Source: Escherichia coli (lineage in GTDB: Bacteria; Pseudomonadota; Gammaproteobacteria; Enterobacterales; Enterobacteriaceae). Taken from it: DNA of 64,000 nucleotides. Positions 28,721-63,202 of this stretch are shown here, one piece after another. The position numbers and the translations under genes were made by a program. The stretch lies in assembly GCF_003334315.1 (NCBI RefSeq), contig NZ_QOWR01000005.1; one strand, given 5' to 3'. Positions within the stretch are counted from its first letter, which is position 1. Every line of letters begins with the position of its first letter. The notes beneath the pieces are model-generated. The model ran no database searches, had not been told where the DNA came from, and worked only from the letters and a program-made list of their open reading frames with translations.

Positions 28721-28735
28721 AAGACAGATTACCAG

Positions 28736-28816
28736 GCCTGATAAGACGCGTGAGCGTCGCATCAGGCATCGTTCACCATTGCCGGATGCGGCGTGAACGC
28801 CTTATCCGGCCTACGG
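28736..28816. repeat. REP/BIME elements (two units)
   Basis: gcctgataagacgcgtgagcgtcgcatcaggc and gccggatgcggcgtgaacgccttatccggcctacgg. Confidence 0.85.
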
Positions 28817-43438: not shown

Positions 43439-45718
43439 ATGGATGACCAGTTAAAACAAAGTGCACTTGATTTCCATGAATTTCCAGTTCCAGGGAAAAT
43501 CCAGGTTTCTCCAACCAAGCCTCTGGCAACGCAGCGCGATCTGGCGCTGGCCTACTCACCAGGCGTTGCCGCACCTTGTCTTGAAATCGAAAAAGACCCG
43601 TTAAAAGCCTACAAATATACCGCGCGCGGTAACCTGGTGGCGGTGATCTCTAACGGTACGGCGGTGCTGGGGTTAGGCAACATTGGCGCGCTGGCAGGCA
43701 AACCGGTGATGGAAGGCAAGGGCGTTCTGTTTAAGAAATTTGCCGGGATTGATGTATTTGACATTGAAGTTGACGAACTCGACCCGGACAAATTTATTGA
43801 AGTCGTCGCTGCGCTCGAACCGACCTTCGGCGGAATCAACCTCGAAGACATTAAAGCGCCAGAATGTTTCTATATTGAACAGAAACTGCGCGAGCGGATG
43901 AATATTCCGGTATTCCACGACGATCAGCACGGCACGGCAATTATCAGCACAGCCGCCATCCTCAACGGCTTGCGCGTGGTGGAGAAAAACATCTCTGACG
44001 TGCGGATGGTGGTTTCCGGCGCGGGCGCCGCAGCAATCGCCTGTATGAACCTGCTGGTAGCGCTGGGTCTGCAAAAACATAACATCGTGGTTTGCGATTC
44101 AAAAGGCGTTATCTATCAGGGCCGTGAGCCAAACATGGCGGAAACCAAAGCCGCATATGCGGTGGTGGATGACGGCAAACGAACCCTCGATGATGTGATT
44201 GAAGGCGCGGATATTTTCCTCGGCTGTTCCGGCCCGAAAGTGCTGACCCAGGAAATGGTGAAGAAAATGGCTCGTGCGCCAATGATCCTGGCGCTGGCGA
44301 ACCCGGAACCGGAAATTCTGCCGCCGCTGGCGAAAGAAGTGCGTCCGGATGCCATCATCTGTACCGGCCGTTCCGACTACCCGAACCAGGTGAACAACGT
44401 CCTTTGCTTCCCGTTCATCTTCCGTGGCGCGCTGGACGTTGGCGCAACCGCCATCAACGAAGAGATGAAACTGGCGGCGGTACGCGCGATTGCAGAACTG
44501 GCCCATGCGGAACAGAGCGAAGTGGTGGCTTCAGCGTATGGCGATCAGGATCTGAGCTTTGGTCCGGAATACATCATTCCAAAACCGTTTGATCCGCGCT
44601 TGATCGTTAAGATCGCTCCTGCGGTCGCGAAAGCGGCGATGGAGTCGGGCGTGGCGACGCGTCCGATTGCTGATTTCGACGTCTACATCGACAAGCTGAC
44701 TGAGTTCGTTTACAAAACCAACCTGTTTATGAAGCCGATTTTCTCCCAGGCTCGCAAAGCGCCGAAGCGCGTAGTTCTGCCGGAAGGGGAAGAGGCGCGC
44801 GTTCTGCATGCCACTCAGGAACTGGTAACGCTGGGACTGGCGAAACCGATCCTTATCGGTCGTCCGAACGTGATCGAAATGCGCATTCAGAAACTGGGCT
44901 TGCAGATCAAAGCGGGCGTTGATTTTGAGATCGTCAATAACGAATCCGATCCGCGCTTTAAAGAGTACTGGACCGAATACTTCCAGATCATGAAGCGTCG
45001 TGGTGTCACTCAGGAACAGGCGCAGCGTGCGCTGATCAGTAACCCGACAGTGATCGGCGCGATCATGGTTCAGCGTGGGGAAGCCGATGCAATGATCTGC
45101 GGTACGGTGGGCGATTATCATGAACATTTTAGCGTGGTGAAAAATGTCTTTGGTTATCGCGATGGCGTTCACACCGCAGGTGCAATGAACGCGCTGCTGC
45201 TGCCGAGTGGTAACACCTTTATTGCCGATACCTACGTCAATGACGAACCAGACGCAGAAGAGCTGGCGGAGATCACCTTGATGGCGGCAGAAACTGTCCG
45301 TCGTTTCGGTATTGAACCGCGCGTTGCTCTGTTGTCGCACTCCAACTTTGGTTCTTCTGACTGCCCGTCGTCGAGCAAAATGCGTCAGGCGCTGGAGCTG
45401 GTCAGGGAACGTGCGCCAGAACTGATGATTGATGGTGAAATGCACGGCGATGCAGCGCTGGTGGAAGCGATTCGCAACGACCGTATGCCGGACAGCCCTT
45501 TGAAAGGTTCTGCCAATATTCTGGTGATGCCGAACATGGAAGCTGCCCGCATTAGTTACAACTTACTGCGCGTTTCCAGCTCGGAAGGTGTGACTGTCGG
45601 TCCGGTGCTGATGGGCGTGGCGAAACCGGTTCACGTGTTAACGCCGATCGCATCGGTACGTCGTATCGTCAACATGGTAGCGCTGGCCGTGGTTGAAGCG
45701 CAAACCCAACCGCTGTAA
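43439..45718 (+). CDS. maeB: NADP-dependent malic enzyme (malic enzyme fused to PTA-like domain)
   Basis: 759-codon [50 protein letters not shown]... Confidence 0.97.
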
Positions 45719-45736
45719 TTCTTTTTTTAACTCTCA

Positions 45737-45764
45737 CGCTTACCCTGAATATTCAGGGTAAGCG
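45737..45764 (+). terminator. perfect 28-bp palindrome downstream of maeB (probable terminator hairpin, or operator)
   Basis: cgcttaccctgaat|attcagggtaagcg, perfect 14-bp arms, 19 nt after the maeB stop, followed only by gttt. Confidence 0.5.
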
Positions 45765-46011
45765 GTTTAGCTGCAATATATTAGTAAAGCTTATTACTGA
45801 GTTTGCGAATAATAAAAAAAGCAGTATATAAAATATCTCGAGATTATTTTATTTATATTCATGCGTCGCATATGAAAGTTTATTCATAACAGTAAATATC
45901 TCTCCATTCTTAGTGATCTACCTCACCTTTTAAACGCGCTTGCCGAATTTTGTTATTTACTCTGACGAAAAATTGTCACGATACACGAAAGTTTTTCACA
46001 GGCGGCGACTC

Positions 46012-46347
46012 ATGGATAAAGAACGCATCATTCAGGAATTTGTGCCCGGCAAACAGGTCACGCTGGCGCATCTCATCGCGCATCCCGGCGAGGAACTGGC
46101 GAAGAAAATCGGCGTTCCGGATGCTGGCGCAATCGGCATTATGACGCTAACTCCCGGCGAAACGGCGATGATCGCCGGTGATTTAGCATTGAAAGCCGCT
46201 GATGTGCATATCGGTTTTCTCGACCGTTTTAGCGGCGCGCTGGTGATTTATGGCTCGGTGGGTGCAGTAGAAGAAGCGTTATCACAAACCGTCAGTGGTT
46301 TAGGTCGCTTATTAAATTATACGCTTTGTGAAATGACCAAAAGTTAA
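46012..46347 (+). CDS. eutS: BMC shell protein EutS
   Basis: 111 codons from ATG 46012: [50 protein letters not shown]... Confidence 0.92.
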
Positions 46348-46359
46348 TACGAGGCATTC

Positions 46360-46839
46360 ATGAAACGAATTGCGTTTGTGGGTACCGTCGGGGCAGGGAA
46401 AACAACGTTATTTAATGCGTTGCAGGGGAATTATACCCTCGCCAGAAAAACACAGGTCGTGGAATTTAATGATAAGGGCGATATTGATACGCCGGGTGAA
46501 TATTTTAGCCATCCCCGCTGGTATCACGCCTTAATTACCACGCTACAGGATGTGGACATGCTGATCTATGTCCACGGCGCGAATGACCCGGAAAGTCGGT
46601 TGCCTGCCGGGTTGCTGGATATTGGCGTCAGCAAACGGCAAATCGCCGTTATCAGTAAAACGGACATGCCGGATGCTGACGTCGCCGCAACGCGAAAGTT
46701 ATTGCTTGAGACGGGCTTCGAAGAGCCGATTTTCGAGCTAAACAGCCACGACCCGCAAAGCGTGCAGCAACTGGTGGATTATCTGGCATCTCTCACCAAA
46801 CAGGAGGAAGCAGGTGAAAAAACTCATCACAGCGAATGA
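46360..46839 (+). CDS. eutP: EutP acetate-kinase-type GTPase/ATPase
   Basis: 159-codon ORF MKRIAFVGTVGAGKTTLFNALQG... (P-loop GAGKTT). Confidence 0.92.
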   Translation: MKRIAFVGTVGAGKTTLFNALQGNYTLARKTQVVEFNDKGDIDTPGEYFSHPRWYHALITTLQDVDMLIYVHGANDPESRLPAGLLDIGVSKRQIAVISKTDMPDADVAATRKLLLETGFEEPIFELNSHDPQSVQQLVDYLASLTKQEEAGEKTHHSE

Positions 46840-53597: not shown

Positions 53598-54824
53598 ATG
53601 GGAATTAACGAAATCATCATGTACATCATGATGTTCTTTATGCTGATAGCTGCCGTAGACAGGATCCTGTCGCAGTTCGGCGGTTCTGCTCGTTTCCTCG
53701 GTAAGTTCGGTAAAAGTATCGAAGGATCAGGCGGTCAGTTCGAAGAAGGCTTTATGGCAATGGGCGCACTGGGCCTGGCGATGGTCGGTATGACCGCGCT
53801 GGCACCGGTACTGGCTCACGTTCTCGGGCCGGTAATTATTCCGGTTTACGAAATGCTCGGCGCTAACCCATCGATGTTCGCCGGAACACTGCTGGCGTGC
53901 GATATGGGCGGCTTCTTCCTCGCCAAAGAGCTGGCGGGCGGCGACGTAGCCGCGTGGCTATACTCTGGGTTAATTCTCGGGTCGATGATGGGGCCAACGA
54001 TTGTGTTTTCCATTCCGGTGGCGCTCGGCATTATCGAACCTTCTGACCGTCGTTATCTGGCGCTCGGCGTGCTGGCGGGCATTGTGACCATTCCGATTGG
54101 TTGTATCGCTGGTGGTCTGGTTGCTATGTACTCCGGTGTGCAGATCAACGGCCAGCCGGTGGAATTCACTTTCGCCCTGATCCTGATGAACATGATCCCG
54201 GTGATCATTGTTGCGATTCTGGTGGCGCTGGGGCTGAAATTCATCCCGGAAAAAATGATCAACGGCTTCCAGATCTTCGCCAAATTCCTCGTTGCATTGA
54301 TCACCCTCGGTCTTGCCGCTGCGGTAGTGAAATTCCTGCTTGGCTGGGAACTGATCCCCGGTCTGGATCCTATCTTTATGGCCCCTGGCGATAAACCCGG
54401 TAAGGTGATGCGCGCCATTGAAGTTATCGGTTCTATCTCCTGCGTTCTGTTAGGGGCGTATCCGATGGTGCTGCTGCTGACTCGCTGGTTTGAAAAACCG
54501 CTGATGAGCGTCGGTAAAGTACTGAATATGAACAACATCGCGGCAGCCGGCATGGTGGCAACGCTTGCCAACAACATCCCGATGTTCGGCATGATGAAGC
54601 AGATGGATACCCGCGGCAAAGTCATCAACTGCGCCTTCGCCGTTTCCGCTGCTTTCGCCCTGGGCGACCACTTAGGCTTCGCCGCTGCCAACATGAACGC
54701 CATGATCTTCCCGATGATTGTCGGCAAGTTGATCGGCGGCGTAACGGCGATTGGCGTGGCGATGATGCTGGTGCCAAAAGAAGACGCGACCGCGACTAAA
54801 ACCGAAGCGGAGGCACAATCGTGA
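53598..54824 (+). CDS. eutH: ethanolamine permease/facilitator EutH
   Basis: 408-codon ORF MGINEIIMYIMMFFMLIAAVDRILSQFGGSARFLGKFGKSIEG..., polytopic. Confidence 0.95.
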   Translation: MGINEIIMYIMMFFMLIAAVDRILSQFGGSARFLGKFGKSIEGSGGQFEEGFMAMGALGLAMVGMTALAPVLAHVLGPVIIPVYEMLGANPSMFAGTLLACDMGGFFLAKELAGGDVAAWLYSGLILGSMMGPTIVFSIPVALGIIEPSDRRYLALGVLAGIVTIPIGCIAGGLVAMYSGVQINGQPVEFTFALILMNMIPVIIVAILVALGLKFIPEKMINGFQIFAKFLVALITLGLAAAVVKFLLGWELIPGLDPIFMAPGDKPGKVMRAIEVIGSISCVLLGAYPMVLLLTRWFEKPLMSVGKVLNMNNIAAAGMVATLANNIPMFGMMKQMDTRGKVINCAFAVSAAFALGDHLGFAAANMNAMIFPMIVGKLIGGVTAIGVAMMLVPKEDATATKTEAEAQS

Positions 54825-56224
54825 ACACTCGCCAGCTATTGAGCGTCGGTATCGATATCGGCACCACCACCACCCAGGTGATTTTCTCCCGGCTGGAGCT
54901 GGTTAACCGTGCGGCGGTGTCGCAGGTGCCGCGCTACGAATTCATTAAACGCGAAATTAGCTGGCAAAGTCCGGTGTTCTTTACCCCTGTCGATAAACAG
55001 GGCGGTTTAAAAGAAGCGGAACTGAAAACCTTAATACTCGAGCAATATCATGCTGCGGGTATTGAGCCGGAAAGCGTTGATTCTGGTGCCATCATCATCA
55101 CCGGTGAAAGCGCGAAAACCCGCAATGCTCGCCCGGCGGTGATGGCGCTCTCTCAGTCGCTGGGCGATTTTGTCGTTGCCAGCGCCGGGCCGCACCTCGA
55201 ATCCGTGATCGCCGGTCACGGAGCCGGGGCACAAACCCTTTCTGAACAACGGCTGTGTCGGGTACTGAATATCGACATCGGCGGTGGCACCGCGAACTAC
55301 GCCCTGTTCGATGCCGGAAAAATCAGCGGCACTGCCTGCCTCAACGTCGGTGGTCGCCTGCTGGAAACCGACAGCCACGGGCGCGTGGTTTACGCTCATA
55401 AACCGGGGCAGATGATTGTGGATGAGTGCTTCGGTGCAGGCACTGACGCCCGTTCGCTGACCGGCGCGCAGCTGGTGCAGGTTACCCGGCGGATGGCGGC
55501 GCTGATTGTCGAAGTGATTGACGGAACGCTTTCGCCGCTCGCGCAGGCATTGATGCAAACCGGTTTGCTGCCCGCAGGTGTTACGCCCGAAATCATTACG
55601 CTTTCTGGAGGCGTGGGCGAATGTTATCGCCACCAGCCCGCCGACCCGTTCTGTTTTGCCGATATTGGCCCACTTCTGGCAACGGCGCTGCATGACCATC
55701 CGCGCCTGCGTGAGATGAATGTGCAGTTTCTGGCGCAAACCGTACGCGCCACGGTGATTGGCGCGGGTGCACATACCCTTTCGCTCTCTGGCAGCACAAT
55801 CTGGCTGGAGGGCGTACAACTGCCGCTGCGCAATTTGCCGGTGGCGATCCCGATTGATGAAACGGATCTGGTGAGTGCCTGGCAACAGGCGCTGCTTCAG
55901 CTGGATCTTGATCCCAAAACTGACGCGTACGTGCTGGCGCTTCCCGCCTCGCTGCCTGTGCGTTACGCCGCGGTACTGACGGTCATCAACGCGCTGGTCG
56001 ATTTCGTCGCGCGTTTTCCGAATCCGCATCCCCTGCTGGTGGTGGCCGGGCAGGACTTTGGTAAAGCTCTGGGCATGTTGTTGCGCCCACAGCTACAACA
56101 ACTCCCGTTGGCAGTCATTGACGAAGTGATTGTCCGCGCGGGGGACTATATCGACATTGGTACGCCTCTTTTTGGCGGATCGGTTGTGCCGGTGACGGTG
56201 AAATCACTCGCATTTCCTTCCTGA
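54821..56224 (+). CDS. eutA: ethanolamine ammonia-lyase reactivase EutA
   Basis: 467-codon ORF MNTRQLLSVGIDIGTTTTQVIFSRLELVNRAAVSQVPRYEFIKREISW...; GTGA overlap with eutH. Confidence 0.95.
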   Translation: MNTRQLLSVGIDIGTTTTQVIFSRLELVNRAAVSQVPRYEFIKREISWQSPVFFTPVDKQGGLKEAELKTLILEQYHAAGIEPESVDSGAIIITGESAKTRNARPAVMALSQSLGDFVVASAGPHLESVIAGHGAGAQTLSEQRLCRVLNIDIGGGTANYALFDAGKISGTACLNVGGRLLETDSHGRVVYAHKPGQMIVDECFGAGTDARSLTGAQLVQVTRRMAALIVEVIDGTLSPLAQALMQTGLLPAGVTPEIITLSGGVGECYRHQPADPFCFADIGPLLATALHDHPRLREMNVQFLAQTVRATVIGAGAHTLSLSGSTIWLEGVQLPLRNLPVAIPIDETDLVSAWQQALLQLDLDPKTDAYVLALPASLPVRYAAVLTVINALVDFVARFPNPHPLLVVAGQDFGKALGMLLRPQLQQLPLAVIDEVIVRAGDYIDIGTPLFGGSVVPVTVKSLAFPS

Positions 56225-56235
56225 GGGAACGACTT

Positions 56236-57597
56236 ATGAAACTAAAGACCACATTGTTCGGCAATGTATATCAGTTTAAGGATGTAAAAGAGGTGCTGGC
56301 TAAAGCCAACGAACTGCGTTCGGGGGATGTGCTGGCGGGCGTTGCAGCGGCAAGCTCACAGGAGCGCGTGGCGGCAAAGCAGGTGTTGTCGGAAATGACC
56401 GTAGCGGACATCCGCAATAATCCGGTGATTGCCTATGAAGATGACTGCGTGACGCGGCTGATTCAGGACGACGTTAACGAAACGGCCTACAACCAGATTA
56501 AAAACTGGAGCATCAGCGAACTGCGTGAGTATGTGCTGAGCGATGAAACCAGCGTGGACGACATTGCCTTTACCCGCAAAGGGCTGACCTCGGAAGTGGT
56601 CGCGGCGGTAGCGAAGATTTGCTCCAACGCGGACCTGATCTACGGCGCGAAGAAAATGCCGGTAATCAAAAAGGCCAATACCACCATCGGTATTCCGGGC
56701 ACCTTTAGCGCCCGTTTGCAGCCGAACGATACCCGTGACGACGTGCAAAGTATCGCTGCGCAAATCTATGAAGGGCTTTCCTTTGGGGTGGGCGATGCGG
56801 TGATCGGCGTTAACCCGGTAACTGACGACGTGGAAAACTTAAGCCGCGTGCTGGATACCATTTATGGCGTGATCGACAAATTCAACATCCCAACTCAGGG
56901 CTGCGTACTGGCGCACGTCACCACCCAGATCGAAGCGATTCGTCGCGGCGCGCCTGGCGGACTGATTTTCCAGAGTATCTGTGGCAGCGAAAAAGGGCTG
57001 AAAGAGTTTGGCGTGGAACTGGCGATGCTCGACGAAGCGCGCGCAGTGGGCGCAGAGTTCAATCGTATCGCCGGGGAAAACTGCCTCTACTTCGAAACCG
57101 GACAAGGCTCTGCGCTATCCGCTGGCGCTAACTTCGGCGCTGACCAGGTGACGATGGAAGCACGTAACTATGGGCTGGCGCGTCATTACGATCCGTTTAT
57201 CGTCAACACCGTGGTCGGCTTTATTGGGCCGGAGTATCTCTACAACGACCGCCAGATTATCCGTGCTGGCTTAGAAGATCACTTTATGGGCAAGCTGAGC
57301 GGCATCTCTATGGGCTGTGACTGCTGCTACACCAACCACGCTGACGCTGACCAGAACCTCAACGAAAACCTGATGATCCTGCTCGCCACCGCAGGCTGCA
57401 ACTACATCATGGGGATGCCGCTGGGTGATGACATCATGCTCAACTACCAGACCACCGCATTCCACGATACCGCCACTGTGCGTCAGTTACTCAACCTGCG
57501 TCCGTCACCGGAGTTTGAACGCTGGCTGGAAAGCATGGGCATTATGGCAAACGGTCGCCTGACCAAACGGGCGGGCGATCCGTCACTGTTCTTCTGA
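56236..57597 (+). CDS. eutB: ethanolamine ammonia-lyase large subunit
   Basis: 453-codon ORF MKLKTTLFGNVYQFKDVKEVLAKANELRSGDVLAGVAAASSQERVAAKQ...; starts 12 nt after eutA stop. Confidence 0.96.
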   Translation: MKLKTTLFGNVYQFKDVKEVLAKANELRSGDVLAGVAAASSQERVAAKQVLSEMTVADIRNNPVIAYEDDCVTRLIQDDVNETAYNQIKNWSISELREYVLSDETSVDDIAFTRKGLTSEVVAAVAKICSNADLIYGAKKMPVIKKANTTIGIPGTFSARLQPNDTRDDVQSIAAQIYEGLSFGVGDAVIGVNPVTDDVENLSRVLDTIYGVIDKFNIPTQGCVLAHVTTQIEAIRRGAPGGLIFQSICGSEKGLKEFGVELAMLDEARAVGAEFNRIAGENCLYFETGQGSALSAGANFGADQVTMEARNYGLARHYDPFIVNTVVGFIGPEYLYNDRQIIRAGLEDHFMGKLSGISMGCDCCYTNHADADQNLNENLMILLATAGCNYIMGMPLGDDIMLNYQTTAFHDTATVRQLLNLRPSPEFERWLESMGIMANGRLTKRAGDPSLFF

Positions 57598-62776: not shown

Positions 62777-63202
62777 ATGGAGATACGCGTATTTCGCCAG
62801 GAAGATTTCGAAGAGGTCATCACCCTTTGGGAGCGTTGCGACTTGCTGCGTCCGTGGAACGATCCGGAAATGGACATCGAGCGTAAGATGAACCATGACG
62901 TCAGTTTGTTTCTGGTCGCTGAGGTAAACGGTGAAGTGGTCGGAACGGTGATGGGCGGTTATGACGGGCATCGCGGGTCTGCTTATTATCTTGGCGTGCA
63001 TCCAGAGTTTCGTGGGCGTGGGATTGCCAATGCGTTGCTTAATCGGCTGGAGAAAAAGCTGATTGCTCGTGGCTGCCCGAAAATTCAGATCAATGTGCCG
63101 GAAGATAACGACATGGTGCTCGGAATGTATGAACGCCTGGGATATGAACACGCCGACGTGCTGAGTCTGGGTAAGCGTTTGATTGAAGATGAAGAGTACT
63201 GA
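62777..63202 (+). CDS. ypeA: GNAT-family N-acetyltransferase
   Basis: 141 codons from ATG 62777: [41 protein letters not shown]...; track ORF 62666 trimmed. Confidence 0.92.

Follow-up and report, generated by a model that had tools for sequence, protein, structure and literature searches.

Whether the perfect 28-bp palindrome that lies between maeB and the eut operon of Escherichia coli acts as RNA, in the form of a hairpin at the end of the maeB transcript, or as DNA, in the form of a site for a dimeric protein, is the question raised by this locus. The palindrome, CGCTTACCCTGAATATTCAGGGTAAGCG, occupies positions 45737-45764 of the window, by which we mean the whole 64,000-nucleotide stretch of DNA that was analysed, and consists of two 14-bp arms with 0 mismatches (halves CGCTTACCCTGAAT and ATTCAGGGTAAGCG), as an earlier note on this DNA had described it. 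It starts 19 nt past the stop codon of maeB, which encodes NADP-dependent malic enzyme (43439-45718, plus strand; a 759-aa ORF annotated as maeB in matching E. coli records), and ends 247 nt ahead of the ATG of eutS, the first gene of the eut operon (46012-46347, plus strand; assigned by translation, tblastn and the annotation of matching records). From 45600 to 46100 the window is 100% identical to E. coli strain CP53. Farther downstream, the ORF at the eutA position (54821-56224) is directly followed by the one at the eutB position (56236-57597), so the eut operon appears to be uninterrupted in the window; in K-12 the CPZ-55 prophage sits between these two genes.

A palindrome of 28 bp is far beyond chance. 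No further match was found in the window at up to three mismatches, and 100 shuffles gave 0. A search of the window with the half-site returned one match with two mismatches, at 63164, which is within chance expectation. The perfection of the palindrome adds little to the hairpin that it encodes, as it requires just a self-complementary 4-nt loop, for which the chance is 1 in 16.

Read as RNA, positions 45737-45748 pair with 45753-45764 around an AUAU loop (45749-45752). The hairpin alone, with 12 pairs of which 7 are GC, has a folding energy of -20.4 kcal/mol, and the 75-nt RNA stretch around it folds at -24.4 kcal/mol (z = -4.8). This energy, together with a K-12 3' terminus mapped just past the stem, bears out the earlier claim of a very stable RNA hairpin right after maeB. 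On the basis of the perfect palindrome, the hairpin energy and the pairing in Escherichia, we annotate 45737-45764 (plus strand) as the probable maeB 3'-end stem-loop. Its 5' flank, TTCTTTTTTTAACTCTCA (45719-45736, plus strand), is T-rich, with a T-run whose length differs among strains. Because this flank has no A-tract, the hairpin is not a bidirectional terminator; on the minus strand it is followed by TGAGAGTTAAAAAAAG, which lacks a T-run. A permissive Rfam search of 45300-46400 and a gathering-threshold search of the whole window gave only chance-level matches over the hairpin. Elsewhere in the window, Rfam naRNA4 (CssrE, a nucleoid-associated ncRNA of REP type) matches 28735-28811 on both strands with 92.6 and 60.8 bits, above its gathering score.

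The tail behind the stem is poor in U. In the window, T occupies four of the eight nucleotides (GGUUUAGC) in the post-stem tail GGTTTAGCTG, and in K-12 three of eight; the corresponding tail T scores are 1.56 and 0.94, compared with 4.5-5.0 for the orthologous terminators of sister genera. A consensus scan for promoters and terminators found no promoter and did not call the hairpin as a terminator, because the tail has only 4 T in 8 nt. The description of the element as a weak intrinsic terminator at best, followed by a mere GUUU, is consistent with these scores. Of the features by which intrinsic terminators are recognised, the locus has a stable, GC-containing stem-loop shortly past the stop codon and, in K-12, RNA 3' ends 7-9 nt past the stem; a U-rich tract in the 7-8 nt directly past the stem is missing. 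The same hairpin carries better tails in E. whittamii (AUUUUUAU) and in Escherichia sp. L006 (GUUUUAUU).

Published RNA 3' ends place the end of the maeB transcript at this hairpin. In MG1655, maeB (2576098-2578377) and eutS (2575470-2575805) are both on the minus strand, and a TRS study (PMC10687069, Nat Commun 2023) lists a 'Primary' maeB 3' terminus on that strand with a peak at 2576046-2576055, dominant positions 2576046 and 2576048, and a 3' UTR of 53 nt. The same table prints the exact maeB hairpin with an energy of -19.5 kcal/mol and a longest U run of 3, and gives the terminus a signal of 0.967-1.0, rank 34, in at least three analyses. The signal is defined as L/(L+D), with D counted across the next 67 nt, so a value near 1 means that almost no RNA ends downstream within that distance. 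According to the legend of Supplementary Data 3 of that study, the printed sequence covers 40 nt before and 10 nt after the terminus; rows such as those for thrC and maeB instead agree with about 50 nt before and 1 nt after it, and for this reason we relied on the coordinates. Mapped through NC_000913.3 and alignments, the K-12 peak corresponds to window positions 45763-45772 and the dominant ends to 45770 and 45772. Ends 2576048 and 2576046 lie 7 and 9 nt, respectively, past the last stem pair, and the peak as a whole covers the first 10 nt beyond the stem. The U-poor tail GGUUUAGCU (45765-45773, plus strand) therefore holds the equivalent of the mapped maeB RNA 3' terminus. Thus, the mature maeB mRNA ends right past the hairpin in K-12, and the Term-seq check of the maeB 3' end that had been proposed earlier is answered by a sharp published terminus. 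The experimental data are all from K-12, the hairpin of which has one pair fewer than that of the window. The curated Term-seq tables of Adams et al. (PMC7815308) contain no maeB or eutS 3' end, the TERMITe supplements have no maeB entry, and a search of the ProQ/RIL-seq literature found nothing on the maeB 3' UTR.

A second termination signal lies farther downstream. Supplementary file 2 of Adams et al. 2021 (PMC7815308) contains a minus-strand Rho termination region at 2575860, where upstream/downstream coverage is 161/21 in the absence of bicyclomycin and 195/140 in its presence (Rho score 5.5, p 1.5e-13). The ratio of downstream to upstream coverage thus rises from 0.13 to 0.72, i.e., transcription reaching eutS increases several-fold when Rho is inhibited. 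The peak maps to about 45957 in the window, 190 nt beyond the hairpin and 55 nt before the eutS ATG. It falls within a C-rich, G-poor stretch (45880-45960, plus strand) that we consider a candidate Rho-loading (rut) region from its C/G profile of 1.9-3.2; C/G reaches 3.2 at 45880-45939 and is 1.9-3.2 over 45880-45979. In the first 100 nt past the hairpin C/G is just 0.55-0.78, and the C-rich stretch lies 120-190 nt beyond the hairpin. The bicyclomycin effect was measured in 800-nt windows, which cannot tie the read-through to maeB transcripts, and RNAs initiated within the AT-rich spacer, instead of maeB read-through, could account for it. An RNA polymerase-RpoS holoenzyme SELEX peak has been reported in the eutS-maeB spacer (2574144 in the paper's coordinates, intensity 11.3; PMC5493296, Shimada et al. 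2017), and this 'constitutive promoter' peak could represent a transcription start inside the spacer. Proteomics shows that MaeB is not co-induced with the Eut proteins (PMC11334477), which is consistent with insulation of maeB from eut.

Within E. coli, the hairpin is nearly invariant. A 40-mer centred on it is present in 5410 of 5426 complete genomes and is identical in 4047 records. The two BLAST places in each genome correspond to the opposite strands of a single palindrome, and the element is therefore present in one copy; the search for the palindrome elsewhere in the genome that had been suggested earlier thus yields one site per E. coli genome and one in the window. In K-12 the last G of the palindrome is replaced by A, leaving 13-bp arms, and E. 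coli B and strain G5 have C replaced by T in the left arm. The tail reads GGTCCAG in strain CX12 and GGTTTGG in UTAK-8. From the variants fetched from E. coli strains, the stem appears to be kept while the tail drifts, and the U-tract is, as judged from these sequences, weak and unconstrained within the species. Two strains carry IS1 insertions at or beside the hairpin. In PRO_A-1482 (L104, 61-112) the IS1 end abuts GGGTAAG within the right arm, and in 19AR0656 (L005, 1614-2367) IS1 has replaced the final codons of maeB together with the hairpin, eutS and the beginning of eutP; these are two independent events at the maeB-eutS spot.

Comparison with other Escherichia lineages bears on what selection keeps. 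As DNA, the arms differ from perfect symmetry at 3 of 13 positions in Escherichia sp. L006 and at 1 of 12 in E. whittamii (L008), and a 1-nt loop insertion in both destroys the central dyad. All of the changed arm positions in these two lineages form G-U pairs on the maeB sense strand. As a result, the predicted hairpin is more stable on the plus than on the minus strand: -17.9 versus -8.5 kcal/mol in L006 and -20.7 versus -16.3 kcal/mol in E. whittamii. The C to T change in the left arm of E. coli B again yields a U-G pair on the plus strand. Thus, four of the five stem substitutions (those in L006, E. whittamii and E. coli B) lead to G-U, which pairs on the plus strand only, and the fifth, in K-12, merely opens the terminal pair. 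Across five Escherichia sequences 98.3% of cells are paired, with three pairs altered one-sidedly to G-U. Among the few Escherichia sequences compared there is no double compensatory change. The pattern suggests that selection acts on the sense-strand RNA hairpin and not on a symmetric DNA operator; given the small sample and the lack of a double compensatory change, we regard the pairing evidence as supportive rather than decisive.

To place the hairpin in a wider context, we used the MaeB C-terminus as query to collect 80 species-representative loci and folded the first 100 nt past the stop in the 79 that had enough downstream sequence. A strong stem-loop lies inside this 100-nt stretch in nearly all of them, usually some 20 nt beyond the stop codon, and the stem-loop sequences differ. 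Among the folded species loci, the E. coli hairpin is common only to the Escherichia loci L006, L007 and L008. In Citrobacter, Klebsiella, Pseudocitrobacter, Yokenella and Salmonella, maeB is followed by a textbook GGCGCGGG...CCCGCGCC stem with TTTTTTATTT; the T score of these orthologous terminators is 4.9-5.0 in the Citrobacter and Klebsiella examples and 4.5 in Salmonella. In the first four of these genera eutS starts about 160 nt beyond the terminator. In Salmonella enterica subsp. diarizonae (L060, 3103-5215), eutS follows maeB at a distance of about 2.1 kb, with extra DNA in between, and maeB still has a canonical terminator of its own. In genera without eut, maeB is followed by terminators of other kinds, by REP-like elements or by CCCTCTCCC/GGGAGAGGG palindromes. 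Enterobacter, Leclercia, Lelliottia, Raoultella and their kin, which have no adjacent eutS, carry REP-like palindromes or long CCCTCTCCC...GGGAGAGGG inverted repeats there (loci L039, L043, L047, L055, L059, L067 and L076-L079 among others, in the first 100 nt after maeB), with fold energies that reach -79 kcal/mol at palindrome-bearing sites. The post-maeB site is a hotspot for palindromic elements. Across related species, then, a hairpin is kept at this site, and its sequence is unrelated outside Escherichia. The comparison suggests that the Escherichia hairpin and AT-rich spacer take the place that in Citrobacter, Klebsiella and Salmonella is occupied by a canonical terminator, a GC stem with a T-run.

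When the entire intergenic region is aligned across genera, the block that is conserved along with eutS is seen to begin at about 45908. This eut control block and leader (TTCTTAGTGATCTACCTCACC...TTGCCGAATTTTGTTATTTACTC..., 45908-46011, plus strand) is also invariant within E. coli. Upstream of it, composition and cross-genus alignment delimit an Escherichia-specific, AT-rich untranslated spacer (45774-45907, plus strand; GC 18-28%). Citrobacter, Klebsiella, Yokenella and Pseudocitrobacter lack this spacer of about 140 nt, and their maeB terminator directly abuts the eut block. Because the conserved block begins at about 45908 and the sequence upstream is specific to Escherichia, the palindrome lies outside the conserved eut control region. 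The AT-rich stretch that the earlier note had taken for the eut control region is instead this spacer. A second, shorter palindrome that had been placed there, ATCTCGAGAT, does exist, one base away from the reported position (45835-45844 rather than 45834-45843); palindromes of 10 bp are expected about 60 times by chance per 64 kb, and ATCTCGATAT or ATTTCGATAT stands in its place in four further E. coli strains, so it is not a conserved feature. MAFFT sets the foreign terminators opposite TTCATGCGTCGCATATGAA (about 45864-45882), where the alignment is unreliable; this segment might be a decayed ancestral hairpin. A peptide-coding reading of the spacer was rejected, as it contains merely ORFs of 22-28 aa that are without support, and no plausible small ORF overlaps the hairpin. 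The EutR literature offered no site sequence that could be mapped to the region. For engineering or dissection of the eut promoter, the hairpin and the AT-rich spacer lie outside the conserved eut control region.

Taken together, we consider it quite probable that the palindrome encodes the stem-loop in which the maeB mRNA ends, and that it acts as plus-strand RNA, combining a leaky terminator with a Rho backup and protection of the transcript. In this scheme, RNA polymerase leaving maeB would transcribe the 12-14 bp hairpin and then three U's only. Given its poor U-tract, the hairpin probably works as no more than a leaky intrinsic terminator. Polymerases that pass it would enter about 250 nt of untranslated spacer and be stopped by Rho before or at the eutS leader, where the bicyclomycin-sensitive region at 45957 comes just after C-rich, G-poor RNA. 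By analogy with the class of transcripts described by Dar and Sorek 2018, 3'-5' exonucleases would trim the tails back to the hairpin, which would protect the mRNA, leaving the mature end at 7-9 nt past the stem as mapped in K-12. The net result would be a defined, stable maeB 3' end and an EutR-controlled eut operon that is insulated from maeB transcription. The earlier suggestion of a barrier between maeB and eut agrees with the K-12 terminus after the hairpin and with the canonical terminator that sister genera have at the same position.

The main competing explanation is that the hairpin is a self-sufficient intrinsic terminator, in which the long stem offsets the short U-tract and the Rho signal concerns spacer transcripts. 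The distance of 7-9 nt and the near-1 signal (0.97-1.0) are equally expected of an efficient intrinsic terminator, the canonical terminators at the orthologous site in sister genera and the better tails of the same hairpin in E. whittamii and L006 point in the same direction, and the RpoS SELEX peak in the spacer could supply the independent transcripts. Against it stand the 3-4 T in the first 8 nt, with T scores far below those of the sister genera and no call by the consensus scan, the lack of conservation of the tail within E. coli (GGUCCAG in the CX12 transcript), and the rise in coverage ratio on Rho inhibition. On balance we regard this explanation as unlikely. A DNA operator for a dimeric transcription factor controlling eut or maeB, as the earlier note had proposed, would account for the perfect 14+14 dyad including its centre and for the near invariance in about 5400 E. 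coli genomes. However, the palindrome is absent from Citrobacter, Klebsiella, Yokenella and Pseudocitrobacter, all of which keep the eut control block; there is one copy per genome, so no regulon; and the element follows the maeB stop and precedes the conserved block by about 145 nt. The dyad is broken in relatives at the arm positions and by the central insertion described above, with RNA pairing kept through G-U, and the E. coli B change is likewise asymmetric. Palindromy beyond the stem amounts only to the self-complementary tetraloop, and a search of the literature for the palindrome string returned zero papers and no binding data. An operator is accordingly very improbable, and the claim of a dimeric protein binding site does not hold up.

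The hairpin might also be a member or remnant of a REP/BIME-like repeat family or mobile element, a reading suggested by the REP-like or CCCTCTCCC/GGGAGAGGG repeats that follow maeB in several genera without eut and by the known role of REP elements as 3'-end protectors. Since the element occurs once per E. coli genome, has no further copy in the window and matches no Rfam family, we find this scarcely credible. A degenerate hairpin pattern was also compared with viral contigs as a sign of mobile-element origin; its 15 matches were all unrelated and mostly coding, and this candidate was rejected. A further proposal is that the swap in Escherichia of a canonical maeB terminator for a U-poor hairpin and a Rho-dependent spacer is adaptive. 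If so, read-through from acetate-induced maeB into eut would be conditional on Rho activity or translation state, and the swap would constitute a second, EutR-independent input into ethanolamine utilisation. We consider this highly doubtful, and its variant in which the perfect dyad is also read by an Escherichia-specific DNA-binding protein is less likely.

If the palindrome is, as we favour, the RNA stem-loop at the end of maeB, the feature is ordinary, and the maeB RNA end, being in published tables, is already known. Its import beyond annotation is small: a maeB 3' UTR of about 53-55 nt and a marked transcript boundary between maeB and eut. The locus is nonetheless a clean example of terminator turnover, with a textbook hairpin and U-tract in related genera and a U-poor hairpin with downstream Rho in E. 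coli. Dar and Sorek 2018 described Rho-dependent transcripts whose precise ends carry stable stem-loops with neither a U-tract nor an A-tract upstream, and suggested that terminators switch mode in evolution through U content, with mixed cases existing. The better tails in E. whittamii and L006 and the canonical terminators of the sister genera fit such a switch, and the maeB case would be an instance of the evolutionary change that these authors proposed as easy.

Compared with known systems, the maeB stem-loop most resembles that class. It is terminator-like in energy and lacks both a U-rich tail and an A-tract upstream, its steady-state 3' end is precise and sits just past the stem, read-through downstream is bicyclomycin-sensitive (in 800-nt windows), and C exceeds G in the untranslated RNA beyond it. 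Unlike members of the class, however, it has its C-rich stretch 120-190 nt away and not immediately downstream, and it retains three U's, which could allow partial intrinsic termination; trimming by PNPase and RNase II, which belongs to the class, would apply to maeB by analogy. With the canonical maeB terminators of Citrobacter, Klebsiella and Salmonella the E. coli element shares a position about 20 nt past the stop and a similar stem energy (-17 to -20 kcal/mol), and its RNA end 7-9 nt past the stem is that of canonical intrinsic terminators, but its U-tract is degenerate (0.9-1.6 versus 4.5-5.0) and unconserved within E. coli, and Rho inhibition raises coverage downstream. Like REP/BIME elements it is an extragenic palindrome at an mRNA 3' end that may be able to block exonucleases, although it is single-copy and has neither the REP consensus nor an Rfam match. 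With the operators of dimeric regulators it shares perfect dyad symmetry in the window strain, whereas it shows no cross-genus conservation with the eut operon, its symmetry is broken in relatives, and it has no second site.
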